This document shows positions 5,407 to 12,029 of a stretch of DNA of 24,296 nt, in pieces. Within the stretch, counting starts at the first letter, position 1; the number at the start of each line of letters is the position of its first letter. Under the pieces are notes generated by a model. That model was not told the DNA's origin, ran no database searches, and saw only the letters and a list, made by a program, of their open reading frames with translations. The stretch covers positions 1 to 24,296 of IMG/VR virus record IMGVR_UViG_3300020017_000186; one strand, given 5' to 3'. The DNA is from a virus. Lineage: Duplodnaviria > Caudoviricetes. The translations under genes and the position numbers were made by a program.

Positions 5407-6681
5407 ATGCCCGAAGCTGCTGCCCCTCCCGCTCCTGCCCAACAGGAAGCATTCACCCCACTCCCCGTCCAGAACGATCCCTCCAGTGGATCAGCCAAAC
5501 CCATCCCACAGATTGATGTGGGGAAGGCTGCGGAAGGGGCCAGATCGAACAAGCCTGCTGGTTCAGGGATGGATGATTCCATGAGTGATCTGGACAAGAT
5601 GTTCGCAGACAATGAGCCCAAGGCAGAGAAACCCACTAGCAGGCCCAAGGAGGCACCGAAAGAGGAGAAGGTGGATACAACCCCTGCTGATGATCAGAAC
5701 GCCCCAGAAGCCAAGGAGGAGGCAAAGGGGGAGGATTATGGGGAGGATGCCAACGCGAAGGCTGGCAATGGGAAGCCTGTGTCTGCCCCGGAGTTGAGGA
5801 AGGCGTACGAGAATTTGAAGCGAGAAGTGGCTGAATTGCGGGAGAAGGCGAAGTCCAAGGGTCCATCTGAGGATGATCTGAAGACGTACAAGGAGCAGTT
5901 CGAGGCAGAACACACCCGCAGGACTGCGCTTGAGAAGGAATTGGCTCAGGCTGCGTACGAACGATCCCCGGAATTCATGGAGAAGCACGCTGCCCCGTTC
6001 AGGAATGCGTACCAGAAGGCCCGTGACCGGATCAGCAGCTTCAAGGTGACTGACAAGGATGGGAATGCACGTCAGGCATCCCCGGATGATTTTGATGCAA
6101 TCATGCAGGTGGGGGATGATATGGAGGCAGCCGTACTGTCCCGGGAACTGTTCGGTGACACGGTGGGACCCATTGTGATGATGCAGCGGGAGAAGGTGCA
6201 GGAATTGCACCAGGGGATGCAGGCAGCGATCAAGAGCGCAGAGGAGAACTTTGGCAAGAGTCAGCAGGAAAAGAAGGTTCAGTCAGAAATGCAGACTGCG
6301 AAGCTGAACAAGTTGTGGAAGACGTTGAATGATGGGGCTGCTGAGAAATATCCACAGTTGTTTCGTCCAGTGGAAGGGGATGAGAAGGGGAACGAACTGC
6401 TTCAGAAGGGGTACGAACTGGTGGATAGGGTGTTCATGGATGCGGAACAGATGAACCCCGAAGAGACGATCAAGCTGCACAGTCAGGTAAGGAACAGGGC
6501 AGCAGCATTTGGAAGACTTGTTCATCAGAACAGGCAGAAGGATGCGAAGATTGCGGAGTTGGAGAAGGCTCTTGAGCAGTACAAGGAATCAGAGCCAAAG
6601 AACGGAGAGGGGAGGATCGGAAAGAAGCCGGAAGCGGAACAGTACGGGGAAAATGCGTTGTCGAGGTATGTGGATCGTTAA
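5407..6681 (+). CDS. Capsid scaffolding protein
   Basis: Disordered Pro/Glu/Lys-rich N-terminus and long coiled coils; sits between portal and MCP. ATG at 5407. Confidence 0.65.
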   Translation: MPEAAAPPAPAQQEAFTPLPVQNDPSSGSAKPIPQIDVGKAAEGARSNKPAGSGMDDSMSDLDKMFADNEPKAEKPTSRPKEAPKEEKVDTTPADDQNAPEAKEEAKGEDYGEDANAKAGNGKPVSAPELRKAYENLKREVAELREKAKSKGPSEDDLKTYKEQFEAEHTRRTALEKELAQAAYERSPEFMEKHAAPFRNAYQKARDRISSFKVTDKDGNARQASPDDFDAIMQVGDDMEAAVLSRELFGDTVGPIVMMQREKVQELHQGMQAAIKSAEENFGKSQQEKKVQSEMQTAKLNKLWKTLNDGAAEKYPQLFRPVEGDEKGNELLQKGYELVDRVFMDAEQMNPEETIKLHSQVRNRAAAFGRLVHQNRQKDAKIAELEKALEQYKESEPKNGEGRIGKKPEAEQYGENALSRYVDR

Positions 6682-7106
6682 GATCGTCTGTGCTCAAAGC
6701 ATTCCAGTCCACTCCACTTGTTTGGTTGGGCAATCGTTGGTCGATTGAATTTTAGGCAGTCTCCGTGAAACCAGTTTGGTTGAAACGTAACGGTTTCAGT
6801 TCGTCCATCTGGAGTCTTGATTTGACTGCTTGATTTGTCAGCCAGTTTACCACGTTTGAAATGCTTGCAGTCATTACAGTCCGCATCAATCGTCTGGCAG
6901 GAAATCGCTTCATTCCGTTCACCAAGCTGCTTGCATTCACGATGGCATTGGAATGGATCGCGATTCCAGTATGAGAACGTGGTGACTGAAGATTCAGTCA
7001 CAGGAAGTCCACAGTATCTGCAATTGACGATTGCGCTGACGTGATTCATAATCTTCACTGCTGTTGGTATTGCGTTCATGTGACCGGATGATCTGTGGTG
7101 GGTCAT
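6678..7106 (-). CDS. Cys-rich putative metal-binding protein, last gene of the inserted cassette
   Basis: CRYC, CHREC, CNDCKH, GDC and C-terminal CFEHRR motifs; ATGA-type overlap with 7103-7639; its stop overlaps the scaffold stop. Confidence 0.65.
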   Translation of the reverse strand: MTHHRSSGHMNAIPTAVKIMNHVSAIVNCRYCGLPVTESSVTTFSYWNRDPFQCHRECKQLGERNEAISCQTIDADCNDCKHFKRGKLADKSSSQIKTPDGRTETVTFQPNWFHGDCLKFNRPTIAQPNKWSGLECFEHRRS

Positions 7107-7639
7107 CCGGTCTTTTCATTAGAACCGTTTGATTCAATCTGTCTCAGGCCAGACTTGATCGACTCTTCTGCCGTCAGCCTGCGCTTAGCTGCTTCTGTGG
7201 CTGCTTCCAGTGTAGCCATTGATCGTCTTGAAGTTGCCATCGCAAGGACTCCATGACTACTGAACTGAGCATGGAATTTGATTCGTTCTTCATTCGTCAT
7301 CTTGTCTGGATCAGCATCACGAACCAGCATCTTGCGAATTGTTCTACGTGCCATCTTGTTGATCCTTCGTGTCGCATCTGATCCTACCGTATGGAATTCC
7401 CCCGCAGTTAGTCTGCGCAAGCCTTGACCGCGAACATGAGCGAAATACTTTCCAGAATCCCGCTGAGTGATCAAGACAGCCCGCGACAGAACCCATGCGT
7501 GTTTACCGAACAGTAAACGGTTCGGGACCAGCGCAAGAATTGTTGCCTTTGGAATCAGTTCGTGATGCTCAATCGCGCTGAGGTATTTTGCGATTGTCAC
7601 CGAATCAACATTAGCCTGCGCTGGAATTTCTTGTCCCAT
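7103..7639 (-). CDS. Basic helical accessory protein of the RAMP cassette (possible nucleic-acid binding)
   Basis: 178 aa with VRGQGLRRL and Arg-rich RRINKMARRTIRKM; start codon directly follows repeat array C. Confidence 0.7.
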   Translation of the reverse strand: MGQEIPAQANVDSVTIAKYLSAIEHHELIPKATILALVPNRLLFGKHAWVLSRAVLITQRDSGKYFAHVRGQGLRRLTAGEFHTVGSDATRRINKMARRTIRKMLVRDADPDKMTNEERIKFHAQFSSHGVLAMATSRRSMATLEAATEAAKRRLTAEESIKSGLRQIESNGSNEKTG

Positions 7640-7645
7640 AAAAAT

Positions 7646-7780
7646 GAAGTGGTGTGGTGTGCGGTGTGATGACGTGGCTTGTTGGGCTGTGTTGTGTGAT
7701 GACTTATCGTGACGTATGATGACGTGTGGTGGTGTGCCGTGTTGTGATTTGGCTAGGCGTGGAGTGGCGTGACTTGCAGT
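7646..7780 (-). repeat. Pentamer array C, 27 units of CA(C/A/T)+NN (candidate guide RNA)
   Basis: + strand reads gaagt ggtgt ggtgt gcggt gtgat gacgt ggctt ... ggagt ggcgt gactt gcagt. The G-NN-D-T phase holds over 135 nt with only four deviant units. Confidence 0.9.
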
Positions 7781-7803
7781 GGAGAAAATCGTAAAATCAT
7801 AAT

Positions 7804-7878
7804 GATGTGGAGTGGTGTGTGGTGACTTGATTTGGCGTGCCGTGACTTGTCTTGAATTGCTGTGCCGTGTTTTGGTGT
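7804..7878 (-). repeat. Pentamer array B, 15 units of CA(C/A)+NN (candidate guide RNA)
   Basis: - strand: AC caa AA cac GG cac AG caa TT caa GA caa GT cac GG cac GC caa AT caa GT cac CA cac AC cac TC cac AT cat. Starts at the RAMP stop codon. Confidence 0.9.
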
Positions 7879-8438
7879 TAAATCTTTTCGAGCTTCACGA
7901 CTTCAAATCGGCCATTCGTGCCACCCTTCTCAGCACGGAACTGGCCCAGTCCGATGAACATACCCGCATGGTCCAAGTGTTCCCGAAGAACCTTCTCGTC
8001 AATCGCATCATCCAGCACAGCGATTGTGACGGTGGTCTTCCATGACATCAGTGTAGGGATGCAACGGGCAACTCGCTTGCCAGAGCCACGCAGTCCATCT
8101 GAGTTGGCATTGATCCAAATTGGTTTAGCATCCTTACGAGTAACACCAAGATCAGCATCTTCCATTACGAGCAATCCGCTCTCAAACAGCTTCGTGTAGG
8201 TTCGCTTACCCTTACCCGGAACCTGACGACCAAGATGCTTCGCGGCTGCGCAGATACAGAACTTCAAAGCCATTGCTGGAATGATGCACTTACCGGCCTC
8301 GTTTACACGAAGCTTTTCTGGGTAGCATCGAACCTCGAAATCTTCGTGGGTTTCACGGTCGGCGCGTTTGCTTTCAAATGGGGCACCGCCTCCAAGTGGA
8401 GCGCGGGATTCTAATGTGACTCGATATTTATTTAGCAT
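7878..8438 (-). CDS. Stand-alone RAMP/Cas7-like RNA-binding protein (Vipr-like), 186 aa
   Basis: N-terminal strand YRVTLESRAPL, IIPAMALKFCI (like the RAMP IPxxxxKG motif) and C-terminal Gly-rich loop AGMFIGLGQFRAEKGGTNGRFEV. Start placed at ATG 8438 because the upstream extension is repeat array and structured RNA. Confidence 0.75.
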   Translation of the reverse strand: MLNKYRVTLESRAPLGGGAPFESKRADRETHEDFEVRCYPEKLRVNEAGKCIIPAMALKFCICAAAKHLGRQVPGKGKRTYTKLFESGLLVMEDADLGVTRKDAKPIWINANSDGLRGSGKRVARCIPTLMSWKTTVTIAVLDDAIDEKVLREHLDHAGMFIGLGQFRAEKGGTNGRFEVVKLEKI

Positions 8439-8442
8439 GATG

Positions 8443-8522
8443 GGGATGGTGTGTTGTGGGGTGGTTTGGCTTGCAGTGCTGTGTGGTGTCTTGTCTTGAG
8501 GTGTAGTGTATTGGTTTGATGT
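8443..8522 (-). repeat. Pentamer array A, 16 units of CA(C/A/T)+NN (candidate guide RNA)
   Basis: - strand: AT caa AC caa TA cac TA cac CT caa GA caa GA cac CA cac AG cac TG caa GC caa AC cac CC cac AA cac AC cat CC. Ends a few nt before the RAMP ATG. Confidence 0.9.
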
Positions 8523-8526
8523 AAAA

Positions 8527-8635
8527 GGCCCGCTCAGGTGAAAGACCAGATCGAATGGGGCTGGTCCGGTTTCCCGGAACTGAGCGGACCAGAAAGTCCA
8601 ATTTGTCAGTCTTGCGCCATTCGACCGGCTTTCAC
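8527..8635 (-). ncRNA. c4-antisense-like cloverleaf RNA with upstream complementary sites
   Basis: Outer stem 8530-8537/8580-8587 and inner hairpins 8544-8549/8561-8566 and 8566-8569/8574-8577. The loop (8551-8558) and bulge (8538-8544) are perfectly complementary to 8617-8624 and 8629-8635. Confidence 0.6.
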
Positions 8636-8654
8636 ACCAGTCACGGACAGGCGG

Positions 8655-8683
8655 ACAATCCTTCATCACTGAACGTCTGTCAA
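8655..8683 (-). promoter_or_regulatory. Candidate sigma70-type promoter for the RAMP cassette
   Basis: Perfect TTGACA (8678-8683 on -), 17-nt spacer, weak -10 GATTGT. Confidence 0.35.
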
Positions 8684-8696
8684 ATTAAAATCTCTA

Positions 8697-8725
8697 TTGA
8701 CTTTACGTTAACGTTAACTGAAATT
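8697..8725 (+). promoter_or_regulatory. Candidate MCP promoter with palindromic operator in the spacer
   Basis: TTGACT at 8697-8702, TGAAAT at 8719-8724, palindrome GTTAACGTTAAC at 8707-8718; the same 13-mer recurs at 19023-19035. Confidence 0.5.
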
Positions 8726-8902
8726 CCCATTAGTTGAGCGTAATTGGCTCCCTCAATGGCCATCACCTTTCGCTTGGGGTGACATAAAAAATCAGGCAAC
8801 AGCGTTAGTGGCACGGGTGCCAGAAGGTCGCTGTTCTTCATTAAAATCCCCAACAGAATCCCTCTGCATTAGGGACAAAACTTTTAATGAAAGGCTCACA
8901 CA

Positions 8903-10237
8903 GTGGCCAACGAGAATATCAGTTGTGACAGTTTTACTCAGTTCCTCGTCGATCAATTGCCGGTTTATGATAAGTTGATTCTTGAGGATATTCGCCCGAT
9001 GGATGGTTGGATTGGGCATGTCAAGACGGGGACCTTCGAGGCTTATTCCGGCACAGAGCATACTCTGGACCGTTTCAACCATGTCTACCCAGATACGACC
9101 AAGGCATGGAATCGCACCACGGCGTCTAGTTGCGTCGGAACTCCTTGCGACAAAACGGAATACTGCATTGGATGGGGGGCCACTCGGATCACTTATTTTT
9201 TGGAGGAGCAATCTTGGGCGACTCCGCTTTTGTGTTTCGATCAGCTTATGCACATCACGAAGGCCCGTGAGAACTTCCGCTACATCATCGGTGGAATCCT
9301 CAAGCCTGCCACATCGACAATCATGTCGAACTTCCTCCGCCGTCGTGCCCTCACGATTGGCACAGGCAAGAAGTGGGTGGCTGATGCCAACATGACCGAC
9401 TTCACGGCCACCTGGGTCACTGTGGGCGATTCTGAACTGTACCTGGATGTCTCTGCTGAACCCACGTCTCGCCTGACTCCGCAGATGCTTCAGCGCCGTG
9501 TCAGTCCCCTGATGCTGATGGGCTACTTCGGCAAGACCCCGTTCAACGACAAGAAGGACATCCCTCTGATCGAACTGGTCACTGGAATGGAAACCTTGTG
9601 GGACCTGGACAAGCAGGTTTGTGATGCGAACATCTCCGGTGCATGGCGGTTCACGGAGTGGACGGCTGCCAATCAGTACTGGCGCTACGGGTTCAACGGC
9701 CAGCTTGGGAACTACGCGACTCGCGCAGACCCAATGGAGATGCGGTTCAACCGTGTTGGCGTCCAGCCGGGCGGGTTGATCCGTTTCCAGTTCATCCAGC
9801 CCTACATCAATGTCGCCTCCTCTGGGGCGGGTGGTGAACCGGGCTTGAAATCCATTGAGAATCCTGACTGGCAGGCTGCTCAGTATTCCATCAGCTTCAT
9901 CTGGCACAAGATGGCGATGGAAGCCTTGGTCTCTGACGCAACCCCTGTGAATCCCGAAATGCCGTTCAGTTCCCGCAACTTTGGTGGACGCTGGCAGTTC
10001 GTGAAGAACAACCTTGGGGCAGACCCCACGGGCTGTGTCATTGAGAACAAGCGCGGCAACAAGGGTCAGTTCATTGCTGACTTCAAGCTGGCGATCAGGC
10101 CCATGTACACGGAATTCGCCGAGGCCATTTTCCACAAGCGTCAGCGGGCCTGTGTCACTGTCTGCGATGTGTGCGAAGATGATCCGGGTTATCCGACTCA
10201 GGATTACAATTCGTGCAACGAAGTCTGCCCTGAGTAG
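8903..10237 (+). CDS. Major capsid protein (444 aa, GTG start)
   Basis: Size, position after portal and scaffold, strongly biased codon usage (C-ending codons, open antisense frame), upstream promoter and downstream hairpin. Confidence 0.75.
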   Translation: MANENISCDSFTQFLVDQLPVYDKLILEDIRPMDGWIGHVKTGTFEAYSGTEHTLDRFNHVYPDTTKAWNRTTASSCVGTPCDKTEYCIGWGATRITYFLEEQSWATPLLCFDQLMHITKARENFRYIIGGILKPATSTIMSNFLRRRALTIGTGKKWVADANMTDFTATWVTVGDSELYLDVSAEPTSRLTPQMLQRRVSPLMLMGYFGKTPFNDKKDIPLIELVTGMETLWDLDKQVCDANISGAWRFTEWTAANQYWRYGFNGQLGNYATRADPMEMRFNRVGVQPGGLIRFQFIQPYINVASSGAGGEPGLKSIENPDWQAAQYSISFIWHKMAMEALVSDATPVNPEMPFSSRNFGGRWQFVKNNLGADPTGCVIENKRGNKGQFIADFKLAIRPMYTEFAEAIFHKRQRACVTVCDVCEDDPGYPTQDYNSCNEVCPE

Positions 10238-10641: not shown

Positions 10642-11202
10642 ATGCCAATCGCTTGTGATCCAGCGTCACTTCGGGCTGAAGCTCACTGCATTTCAGCCTG
10701 CATTACGCATGGTCAGGCGATAGCGATCAAGTCACACCTTCTGGCACAGATCGCTGGTGGCAGCGAGAATCCCGGCACACTGCTCCAGGAAGCAGCCTGC
10801 TTCCTATGCCTCACCAAGCCTCAACTGTTTGCAATTCGCATCTACCTCTTGGCAGGACTGGCTGGGGTTGATCCTGAATCACAGGCAGTCATGGATGAAG
10901 CGTGTTGCCTGCTGGGATGCCTGACTGGTGGACAGTTGCGACTGATACAGATTTACATCCTGGCGACAATTGCCGGGGAAGAACCAGATGGGTCCCTACT
11001 TAATCCAGCGCAGTGTTTCCTTTCGTGTCTGATGGGAATCCAGAACGATGCAGTCCAGACGTACCTGCTGGCAGTGATTGCGGGTGGGTCAACCTACCCA
11101 CAGGAACTGGCAGAACTGGCCTGTTGCATCCTGACTTGTTTGTCAGGAGAACAGTTGTTGGCTGCTGAGACAGCCCTAATGTGCGAGTGGGCGAATGTAT
11201 GA
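10642..11202 (+). CDS. Cys-rich helical repeat protein (5 x ~37 aa), probable virion protein
   Basis: Repeated unit (D/N)P..L..EA.C..CL..GQL.AI..YLLA.IAGG. Confidence 0.7.
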   Translation: MPIACDPASLRAEAHCISACITHGQAIAIKSHLLAQIAGGSENPGTLLQEAACFLCLTKPQLFAIRIYLLAGLAGVDPESQAVMDEACCLLGCLTGGQLRLIQIYILATIAGEEPDGSLLNPAQCFLSCLMGIQNDAVQTYLLAVIAGGSTYPQELAELACCILTCLSGEQLLAAETALMCEWANV

Positions 11203-11387
11203 ATCAGGATCAAGATAACGCACTGGCTGGACTGAGGTATGCATTGAGAATTGTGGAAGGACGAAGAATACTGAACAGGCCACCAGGATACTTGGCTGCA
11301 ATTGATGAAATTGAAATCTTCCTCAAGGCTGCAATCAGTCGCGTTGAGAATGGCGAGGAAATGAGTGCATCCTGTCTGGTTCAATGA
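11199..11387 (+). CDS. Hypothetical protein (62 aa)
   Basis: ATGA overlap at 11199-11202; fills the gap between the two paralogs. Confidence 0.55.
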   Translation: MNQDQDNALAGLRYALRIVEGRRILNRPPGYLAAIDEIEIFLKAAISRVENGEEMSASCLVQ

Positions 11388-11390
11388 CGT

Positions 11391-12029
11391 ATGCCTGAAT
11401 GCGATGCAGCATCACTTGTAGAAGCTGGCTGTTGTCTCTCCTGCCTTGAAGCGGGTCAGCTTAATGCAATCAAGACCAGTCTTCTGGCTGAGATTGCTGT
11501 GGGTTCCACTGATCCCATCGTACTTCTGGAAGAGGCCAATTGCTTCCTCTGTCTGACCCGCACTCAACTGGCATCCATCAGGGTTTACTTGCTGGCTGAA
11601 CTGGGAGGAATCGAACAGACCCCACAGGCGATCATGGATGAGACGTGCTGCTTGATTGACTGCATGACAGCCTTTCAGGCACTGGCAGCACAGGTGGCTA
11701 TTCTGGCAGAGATCAATGGGGATGATCCTGAATCCATCCCTGAACTAATGGGTGACTGCTGTTTCCTCTCCTGCCTGTCTGGATTGCAGGTGGATGCGAT
11801 TCAGACGTACTTGGTGGCAGTCATCGCGGGTGGAAGTACTGACCCAATCGTCCTGCTAAGTCAGGCATCATGCGTGCAGCAATGCCTGTCAAAAGGTCAA
11901 TTGATCTTTGCTGAGACAGCGATGATGTGTGCGTGGTCAAATAATTTGGGTGGAACATTCTTCAGAATCACGCAGGATGGAGACTTCCGAATCACTCAGG
12001 ATGGTGATCGAAGAGTCTGGAGACACTGA
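11391..12029 (+). CDS. Cys-rich helical repeat protein, paralog of 10642-11202, with C-terminal RITQDGD tandem repeat
   Basis: Same five-repeat pattern; ends FFRITQDGDFRITQDGDRRVWRH. Confidence 0.7.
   Translation: MPECDAASLVEAGCCLSCLEAGQLNAIKTSLLAEIAVGSTDPIVLLEEANCFLCLTRTQLASIRVYLLAELGGIEQTPQAIMDETCCLIDCMTAFQALAAQVAILAEINGDDPESIPELMGDCCFLSCLSGLQVDAIQTYLVAVIAGGSTDPIVLLSQASCVQQCLSKGQLIFAETAMMCAWSNNLGGTFFRITQDGDFRITQDGDRRVWRH

Follow-up and report, generated by a model that had tools for sequence, protein, structure and literature searches.

The 24,296-nucleotide stretch analyzed here in full (hereafter, the window) is IMG/VR virus record IMGVR_UViG_3300020017_000186 (Duplodnaviria; Caudoviricetes). 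On its minus strand, between a scaffold-like gene and the major capsid protein gene, it harbors a cassette comprised of a gene for a Vipr-like RAMP protein, three arrays of five-base repeats, and an accessory open reading frame (ORF) (Table 1). Array A likely guides the Vipr-like protein to silence the capsid gene of sibling phages, and the carrier is probably spared by a divergent, cassette-linked 5' allele of its own capsid gene, which includes three codons at which guide and resident sequence disagree; we give this reading a probability of about 0.55. From its sequence features (the RAMP protein, the five-base repeats, and a 1-nt skip at the wobble base), the cassette is treated as a variant of VIPR, as described in three preprints (10.64898/2026.04.26.720920; 10.64898/2026.04.26.720927; 10.64898/2026.10.15.759431). 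The interest of the locus lies in the linked tract and in the adjacency of target and cassette more than in the three codons themselves.

Array A and its match to sibling and resident capsid genes

On the minus strand, the two variable bases of the array A units are AC, TA, TA, CT, GA, GA, CA, AG, TG, GC, AC, and CC, then AA, AC, and CC. Read with a 1-nt skip, nine of the first twelve units agree with positions 9191-9226 (capsid codons 97-108), and the leading unit (tacAT), ahead of the AC unit, agrees with Ile96. The only mismatches are TA against TT (9197), CT against TT (9200), and AG against TC (9212), all within positions 9197-9214 (TTT TTG GAG GAG CAA TCT, encoding F99, L100, E, E, Q, and S104). 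This alignment reproduces the three differences named in the initial annotation, namely Leu CTN versus TTG, Ser AGY versus TCT, and Tyr TAY versus Phe TTT, and its premise holds under the standard code, in which Leu, Ser, and Arg alone allow a silent change at codon position 1 or 2. The last three units are without a match and resemble the stereotyped 3' ends of other arrays. Against the window, nine matches were reached by one of 300 shuffles of 15 units, and skips of 0 and 2 gave no signal (at most seven units).

The match is complete in relatives. Over 7.3 Mb, a skip of 1 reached a score of 12, as compared with at most 6 for skips of 0 and 2 and for five shuffles. All twelve units agree in L001, L002, L248, L247, and L275, and all 13, including the leading unit, agree in three relatives without the cassette, versus 10 of 13 in this phage. 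In L001 and L002, whose capsid proteins are 88-89% identical to that of the window, there is no cassette between scaffold and capsid genes. An exact search of IMG/VR with guide A returned three matches, all in this capsid gene family. These matches support the view that guide A is aimed at cassette-free sibling phages.

By analogy with published VIPR work, array A would give rise to an RNA of the same sense as the capsid mRNA. By pairing with the template strand, this RNA would repress the capsid gene of a rival during co-infection, without cutting it. A guide against a gene that the carrier also needs would persist only with a mismatched own copy, and linkage would hold the guide and the immune allele together. 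Crossovers between cassette and footprint would join the guide to a sensitive allele, resulting in self-silencing and loss; such loss would favor adjacent targets and leave the interval to diverge like a small recombination barrier, with erosion of the codon bias of the capsid gene. Since the Phe, TTR, and TCN states are common standing variants, directed recoding would not be needed for a guide to be sorted against them. The best reading of the codon differences is self-avoidance by way of a cassette-linked allele, with escape from binding as its prediction.

The divergent capsid tract and the adjacency of target and cassette

One other phage (L003/G001) has the same cassette, with the gene order array-vipr-arrays-ORF and a Vipr protein 92% identical. 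Of 97 informative sites in the capsid gene, 70 pair the window with the non-carrier L179 and 27 pair the two carriers, 19 of the latter at or before codon 104. The best breakpoint falls between codons 102 and 104 (permutation p = 0.0002) and holds for third positions alone. In trees, codons 15-104 unite the window with L003 (bootstrap 100), and codons 133-440 unite L003 with L002 (98) and then with L001 (100). The edges of the tract lie at the guide footprints: divergence between the window and L179 falls after codon 110, and the footprint ends at 108; divergence between L003 and L002 falls after codon 132, and the L003 guide covers codons 102-116. On these comparisons the capsid gene is a mosaic.

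Within codons 15-104, carriers and non-carriers differ at 2-8% of residues, and the synonymous distance is 0.95-1.01 (saturated), as against 0.28-0.48 downstream. The share of T among third-position pyrimidines, T3/(T3+C3), is 0.56-0.59 in the tract of the carriers, compared with 0.22-0.29 for seven non-carriers (p about 0.001). The tract has 12 C-to-T carrier sites, of which TTG100 is one, and Leu25, outside the footprint, is also TTG in both carriers. Upstream of the capsid gene, positions 8530-8660 are nearly identical between the two carriers. A weaker echo of the capsid tract is seen in a GGY-type carrier (L282:8220-8473), which is 99% identical to a non-carrier (L281) until about 120 bases before its guide footprint and then diverges as far as the cassette.

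Seventeen array regions were scanned against 9.44 Mb of DNA on both strands, 2.26 Mb of it whole-genome stretches (19 complete records and two fragments), and five of them gave in-register matches above shuffles. The five guides, which represent three cassette lineages, include two against the capsid gene, two against the C-terminus of the scaffold gene (15/16 units, self 9/16; and 12/13, self 7/13), and one against a small gene upstream of vipr (10/10, self 6/10). The second capsid guide is the upstream array of L003, which decodes to capsid codons 102-116 with a best score elsewhere of 13/15. In every case the target is the orthologue of a gene that borders the cassette and lies 140-700 bp from the cassette edge; the own copy is always mismatched (9/12, 11/15, 9/16, 7/13, and 6/10), for the most part through amino-acid changes at sites of variable protein sequence. 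This adjacency is a lead with moderate support.

Several observations weigh against the favored reading. The intergenic positions 8700-8900 group the window with the non-carriers L179 and L002, which means that between cassette and footprint the tract is interrupted. The cassette was found in two carriers only, which makes the tract a single evolutionary event. L001 and L002 are 33-35% complete and L179 is 2.6 kb long, hence these relatives are cassette-free at this locus only. For the remaining 12 of the 17 array regions there is no target in the 9.44 Mb, and in that DNA the surroundings of the capsid gene are overrepresented, which favors adjacent matches. The self site keeps 85% of the read bases (22/26), and the cut-off used for natural VIPR targets is 80% (10.64898/2026.04.26.720920); the immunity of the self site is thus not assured. 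For the L003 guide, self (11/15) scores hardly lower than close non-carriers (12/15). Lastly, of 305 12-codon windows that have no more than one amino-acid change, 20 (7%) show at least three differences; this mild excess would be in keeping with selection on self as well.

Codon states among relatives and alternative explanations

The annotation had expected TTG, TCN, and Phe in carriers and CTN, AGY, and Tyr in non-carriers. Phe99 and TTG100 do track carriage in the close clade, being present in both carriers in place of the Tyr and CTN of four close non-carriers (L179, L001, L002, and L248); codon 104 does not, as it is TCN in the window and in the non-carrier L179 and AGT in the carrier L003. 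Of 122 distinct sequences of the site, 65 have Phe99 and six have all three states; TTR100 is found in 14 of 90 and TCN104 in 36 of 87. Among near-complete non-carriers (n = 44, with three of 52 near-complete records left out as their site pattern did not match), the counts are 26 for Phe, 2/28 for TTR, and 13/24 for TCN. A single one has all three states: G004, a complete, vipr-free genome with TTT TTG TCG and a capsid protein ~54% identical to that of the window. The codons are therefore shared by a relative without the cassette, albeit a distant one, which the annotation had taken as counting against its claim. The vipr gene itself is present in 6 of 100 family records searched whole and in 5 of the 52 near-complete ones.

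Directed escape recoding, in which codons 99, 100, and 104 changed under selection by the carrier's own guide or those of rival carriers, appears unlikely. It draws on the derived state of Phe99 and TTG100 relative to the four close non-carriers, on the rarity of TTR100 in near-complete non-carriers, on the two Leu switches by which L003 mismatches its own guide, and on the 7% of equally conserved windows that differ as much. Against this, the footprint is no richer in such changes than its surroundings: 73 of 439 capsid codons differ in the first two bases from L001 or L002, which gives p = 0.32 for three of 12; position-1/2 changes are not enriched in the footprint within the divergent tract (Fisher p 0.20-0.67); and, relative to L001, family switches outside the footprint affect 18 of the 41 conserved Leu and Ser codons (Leu, 11/25; Ser, 7/16). 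Ser104 does not follow carriage, all three states occur in G004, and TTG100 belongs to a tract-wide C-to-T pattern.

The silent nature of the switches has a simpler source. Capsid residues 97-108 are nearly invariant, so that any mismatch there must be a Leu or Ser family switch or a conservative swap. In the two capsid guides, four of five self mismatches are silent, whereas in the three other carriers 13 of 15 classifiable self mismatches are amino-acid changes, which indicates that the silent Leu and Ser switches follow from protein conservation at the site. The three codon differences are thus compatible with escape, and a signature of directed recoding is not established. Of the proposed self/non-self discrimination by recoding, the aim of the guide at siblings is supported, and the role of the three codons as specific escape changes, occurring as they do at the background rate, is not. 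In L003 (L003:5471-5585), the guide unit at the Ser104 position is AC, one base from both AGY and TCN. This could hedge against a switch of Ser family, or the target may just be one that bears Thr. An apparent guide of L003 against vipr itself (six units) was rejected, as its score equals the shuffle maximum.

Hitchhiking without function seems improbable. Under this alternative the cassette and the 5' capsid piece came from one donor, with a guide that copies a competitor and incidental self mismatches, or with a guide that is outdated. The background-level mismatch rate, the mosaic genomes throughout the clade, and the array regions that lack any target would fit. It does not account for tract edges that coincide with footprints in both carriers, for 13/13 matches that persist in siblings, or for adjacency that recurs in three cassette lineages.

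Autoregulation, in which the partial self match dampens or delays the carrier's own capsid expression, seems similarly improbable: 22 of 26 read bases agree, SUSP1 guides are reported to act on targets averaging 89% of read bases (10.64898/2026.10.15.759431), and the four 3'-most programmed units match in a system where pairing is reported to run 3' to 5' (10.64898/2026.04.26.720927), but the guide agrees with siblings in full, with their state at each of the three positions, a strong self near-match occurs in only two of 254 arrays at 73 vipr loci (those of the window and L003), with no general self near-matching among them (mean 4.48 versus 4.38 in shuffles), and the agreement of guide and self in related carriers is only 6/10 to 9/16.

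The cassette, its surroundings, and known systems

The remaining features of the locus are given in Table 1. The Vipr-like protein model (pLDDT 91) has Cas7/Csm3 chains as its top structural matches (E 1e-7), and no CRISPR-like repeat family was found. Across 165 units from the window and L003, the scaffold is CAC in 90, CAA in 45, and CAT in 13, three forms that contain no G. Vipr homologues at 42-47% identity have GGC arrays, which shows that the protein family spans both scaffolds, and those at 40-49% identity accompany GGC, CGC, GAC, GTC, CTC, or CAC repeats on the strand of the gene. A distant GGY-type vipr (23-26% identity) occurs in five family records, and two of its carriers (G025 and G053) gave no decodable target in the 9.44-Mb scan. 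A tblastn search of 50,697 phage records returned six weak matches, none of them SUSP1, and a direct comparison to SUSP1 Vipr was not made. In the window and 68 distinct vipr loci (phylogeny uncorrected), the G-rich loop has a position, just ahead of its aromatic-Arg, at which the residue changes in step with the repeat scaffold: it is Gln with CAC (4/4), Phe with GAC (3/3), Thr with CTC (2/2), Asp with GGT (2/5, the rest unassigned), and Arg mostly with CGC or GGC. This residue may be the one that reads the scaffold.

Table 1. Positions of the cassette, the capsid gene, and the guide-A site in the window.
Feature	Position	Strand	Remarks
Accessory (vap-like) ORF, 178 aa	7103..7639	-	78% identical in carrier L003
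Array C, 28 units, probably two guides	7642..7781	-	Target: none found
Array B, 15 units	7800..7874	-	Target: none found
Vipr-like RAMP protein, 186 aa, G-rich loop	7878..8438	-	Cas7/Csm3 fold (predicted)
Array A, 16 five-base units CA(C/A/T)-NN	8444..8523	-	First 13 NN encode target; last 3 look unprogrammed
Stable hairpin upstream of array A	8527..8590	-	Nearly identical in both carriers; also in non-carriers L179, L002
Major capsid protein gene	8903..10237	+	Orientation divergent from cassette; predicted fold
Carrier-type 5' capsid tract, about codons 22 to 104-110	8966..9232	+	Groups with L003; right edge at guide footprint
Guide-A target orthologue, capsid codons 96-108	9188..9226	+	10/13 units, 22/26 read bases
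Phe99 TTT	9197..9199	+	Guide TA expects Tyr; one base mismatch; carrier-associated in close clade
Leu100 TTG	9200..9202	+	Guide CT expects CTN; one base mismatch; both carriers; 2/28 Leu-bearing near-complete non-carriers
Ser104 TCT	9212..9214	+	Guide AG expects AGY; two base mismatches; TCN also in non-carrier L179, not in carrier L003

Array A ends five bases before the vipr start, and the arrays fold no better than shuffles; stereotyped last units were all that was seen at array 3' ends. The hairpin in Table 1 was rejected as a guide tail, as it lies 5' of the array, occurs in non-carriers, and is not cassette-specific; an Rfam search over positions 6600-9000 gave no matches. Arrays B and C and three downstream L003 arrays have no target above shuffles in the 9.44 Mb, and exact 10-unit patterns of arrays B and C have no matches in IMG/VR. 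A contig from another run matches array C (7641-7790) with two differences, and a second contig of that run has a vipr match of ~89% and a different array B; one array may be conserved across cassettes. In the downstream arrays of L326 and L327, and in L330, GGY-type arrays are interrupted by short hairpins (GGCC-GAAA-GGCC and GGACTC-GAAA-GAGTCC), with one block common to all three; these are possibly processing sites or ribozyme parts. The accessory ORF has no Pfam or PHROG family, and the three cassette-side ORFs gave no match in a search for nuclease families. L003 has an extra ORF downstream of its accessory gene (L265:7168-7932), absent in the window, with partial matches to HNH-endonuclease PHROGs.

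In its predicted fold, the product of the capsid ORF (444 aa) resembles capsid proteins of the HK97 type (best E 2.7e-10), and among named Atlas clusters those nearest to it are capsid families; its sequence had no match in Pfam, PHROG, or PDB, and the fold comparison gave its identity. The window also encodes portal-like and scaffold-like genes, labeled by size and position without a family match. Two methyltransferase genes (PF13578) and two glycosyltransferase-like ORFs are clustered 5' of the portal-like gene (107-2822), and two tandem paralogous Cys-rich ORFs with internal repeats lie 3' of the capsid gene (10642-12029) and are kept in L001-L003. In prokaryote genomes, the capsid family has a sole match, on a 7.4-kb contig of a Pedosphaera metagenome-assembled genome, which is a weak hint to the host. 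Two sequencing runs contain this sequence at a small share, with no RNA run on record among them.

In comparison with VIPR, the cassette shares a phage-borne RAMP gene with one accessory gene, five-base repeats up- and downstream, a 1-nt skip that falls on the wobble base, targets that lie in competing phages, and guides that would spare their own locus, as is reported in VIPR for vrRNA-targeting guides (10.64898/2026.10.15.759431). It differs in its scaffold (CAC/CAA/CAT here; GGY, NNNGG, YNNNG, and NNNNG are the forms named in that text), and with this G-free CAC scaffold the guide code becomes wider. No folded counterpart of the structured, invariant 3' tail of VIPR was seen, the target is an orthologue of the carrier's own adjacent capsid gene, and a self match at 85% of read bases contrasts with none at 80% or more in the preprint (10.64898/2026.04.26.720920). 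The preprints argue that wobble skipping blocks synonymous escape, and this locus shows the loophole of Leu and Ser family switches in natural sequences. Term searches of the text of the three preprints found no mismatch-tolerance data, for which the natural site series of 13/13, 11/13, and 10/13 could serve. The literature found on VIPR with homing, recoding, or capsid targeting amounted to these same preprints, with no occurrences of homing or recoding in the text searched.

The mini-CRISPR arrays of SPV1 and SPV2 borrow host Cas proteins and pair contiguously, and mutated orthologous loci and an unexplained proximity of targets are reported for them (PMC6858448). Here, in contrast, the phage encodes its own effector, wobble bases are unread, and a divergence tract that ends at the footprint is visible; together with the adjacency of target and cassette, this offers a testable reason for the proximity that the mini-CRISPR paper called unclear.

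The free-standing T4 homing endonucleases SegF and SegG exemplify intronless homing, in which a neighboring gene is acted on with co-conversion (PMC2988022). As with these enzymes, the element lies beside its target gene, would act at a distance of hundreds of bases on a related phage's allele, and has a flank that co-travels; the target is indeed in the neighboring gene of an element-free relative. Unlike SegF and SegG, the window cassette has no nuclease domain that we found, hence a break-repair mechanism is not supported, and spread would rest on silencing plus selection. In synthetic Cleave-and-Rescue drives, a guide that targets an essential gene is reportedly linked to a resistant, recoded version of that gene; such drives are engineered, cutting, and diploid, whereas the present system is natural, predicted to silence, and found in co-infecting phages, and the likeness is one of analogy only. 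We tentatively raise the doubtful possibility that the cassettes studied here are natural silence-and-rescue drives, in which an RNA-guided repressor acts on the rival allele of an essential neighboring gene while a linked, mismatched allele rescues the carrier. If so, the cassette-to-target interval would be a recombination barrier that splits phage populations, and the tendency of virus-borne guides to aim close to home would be explained.
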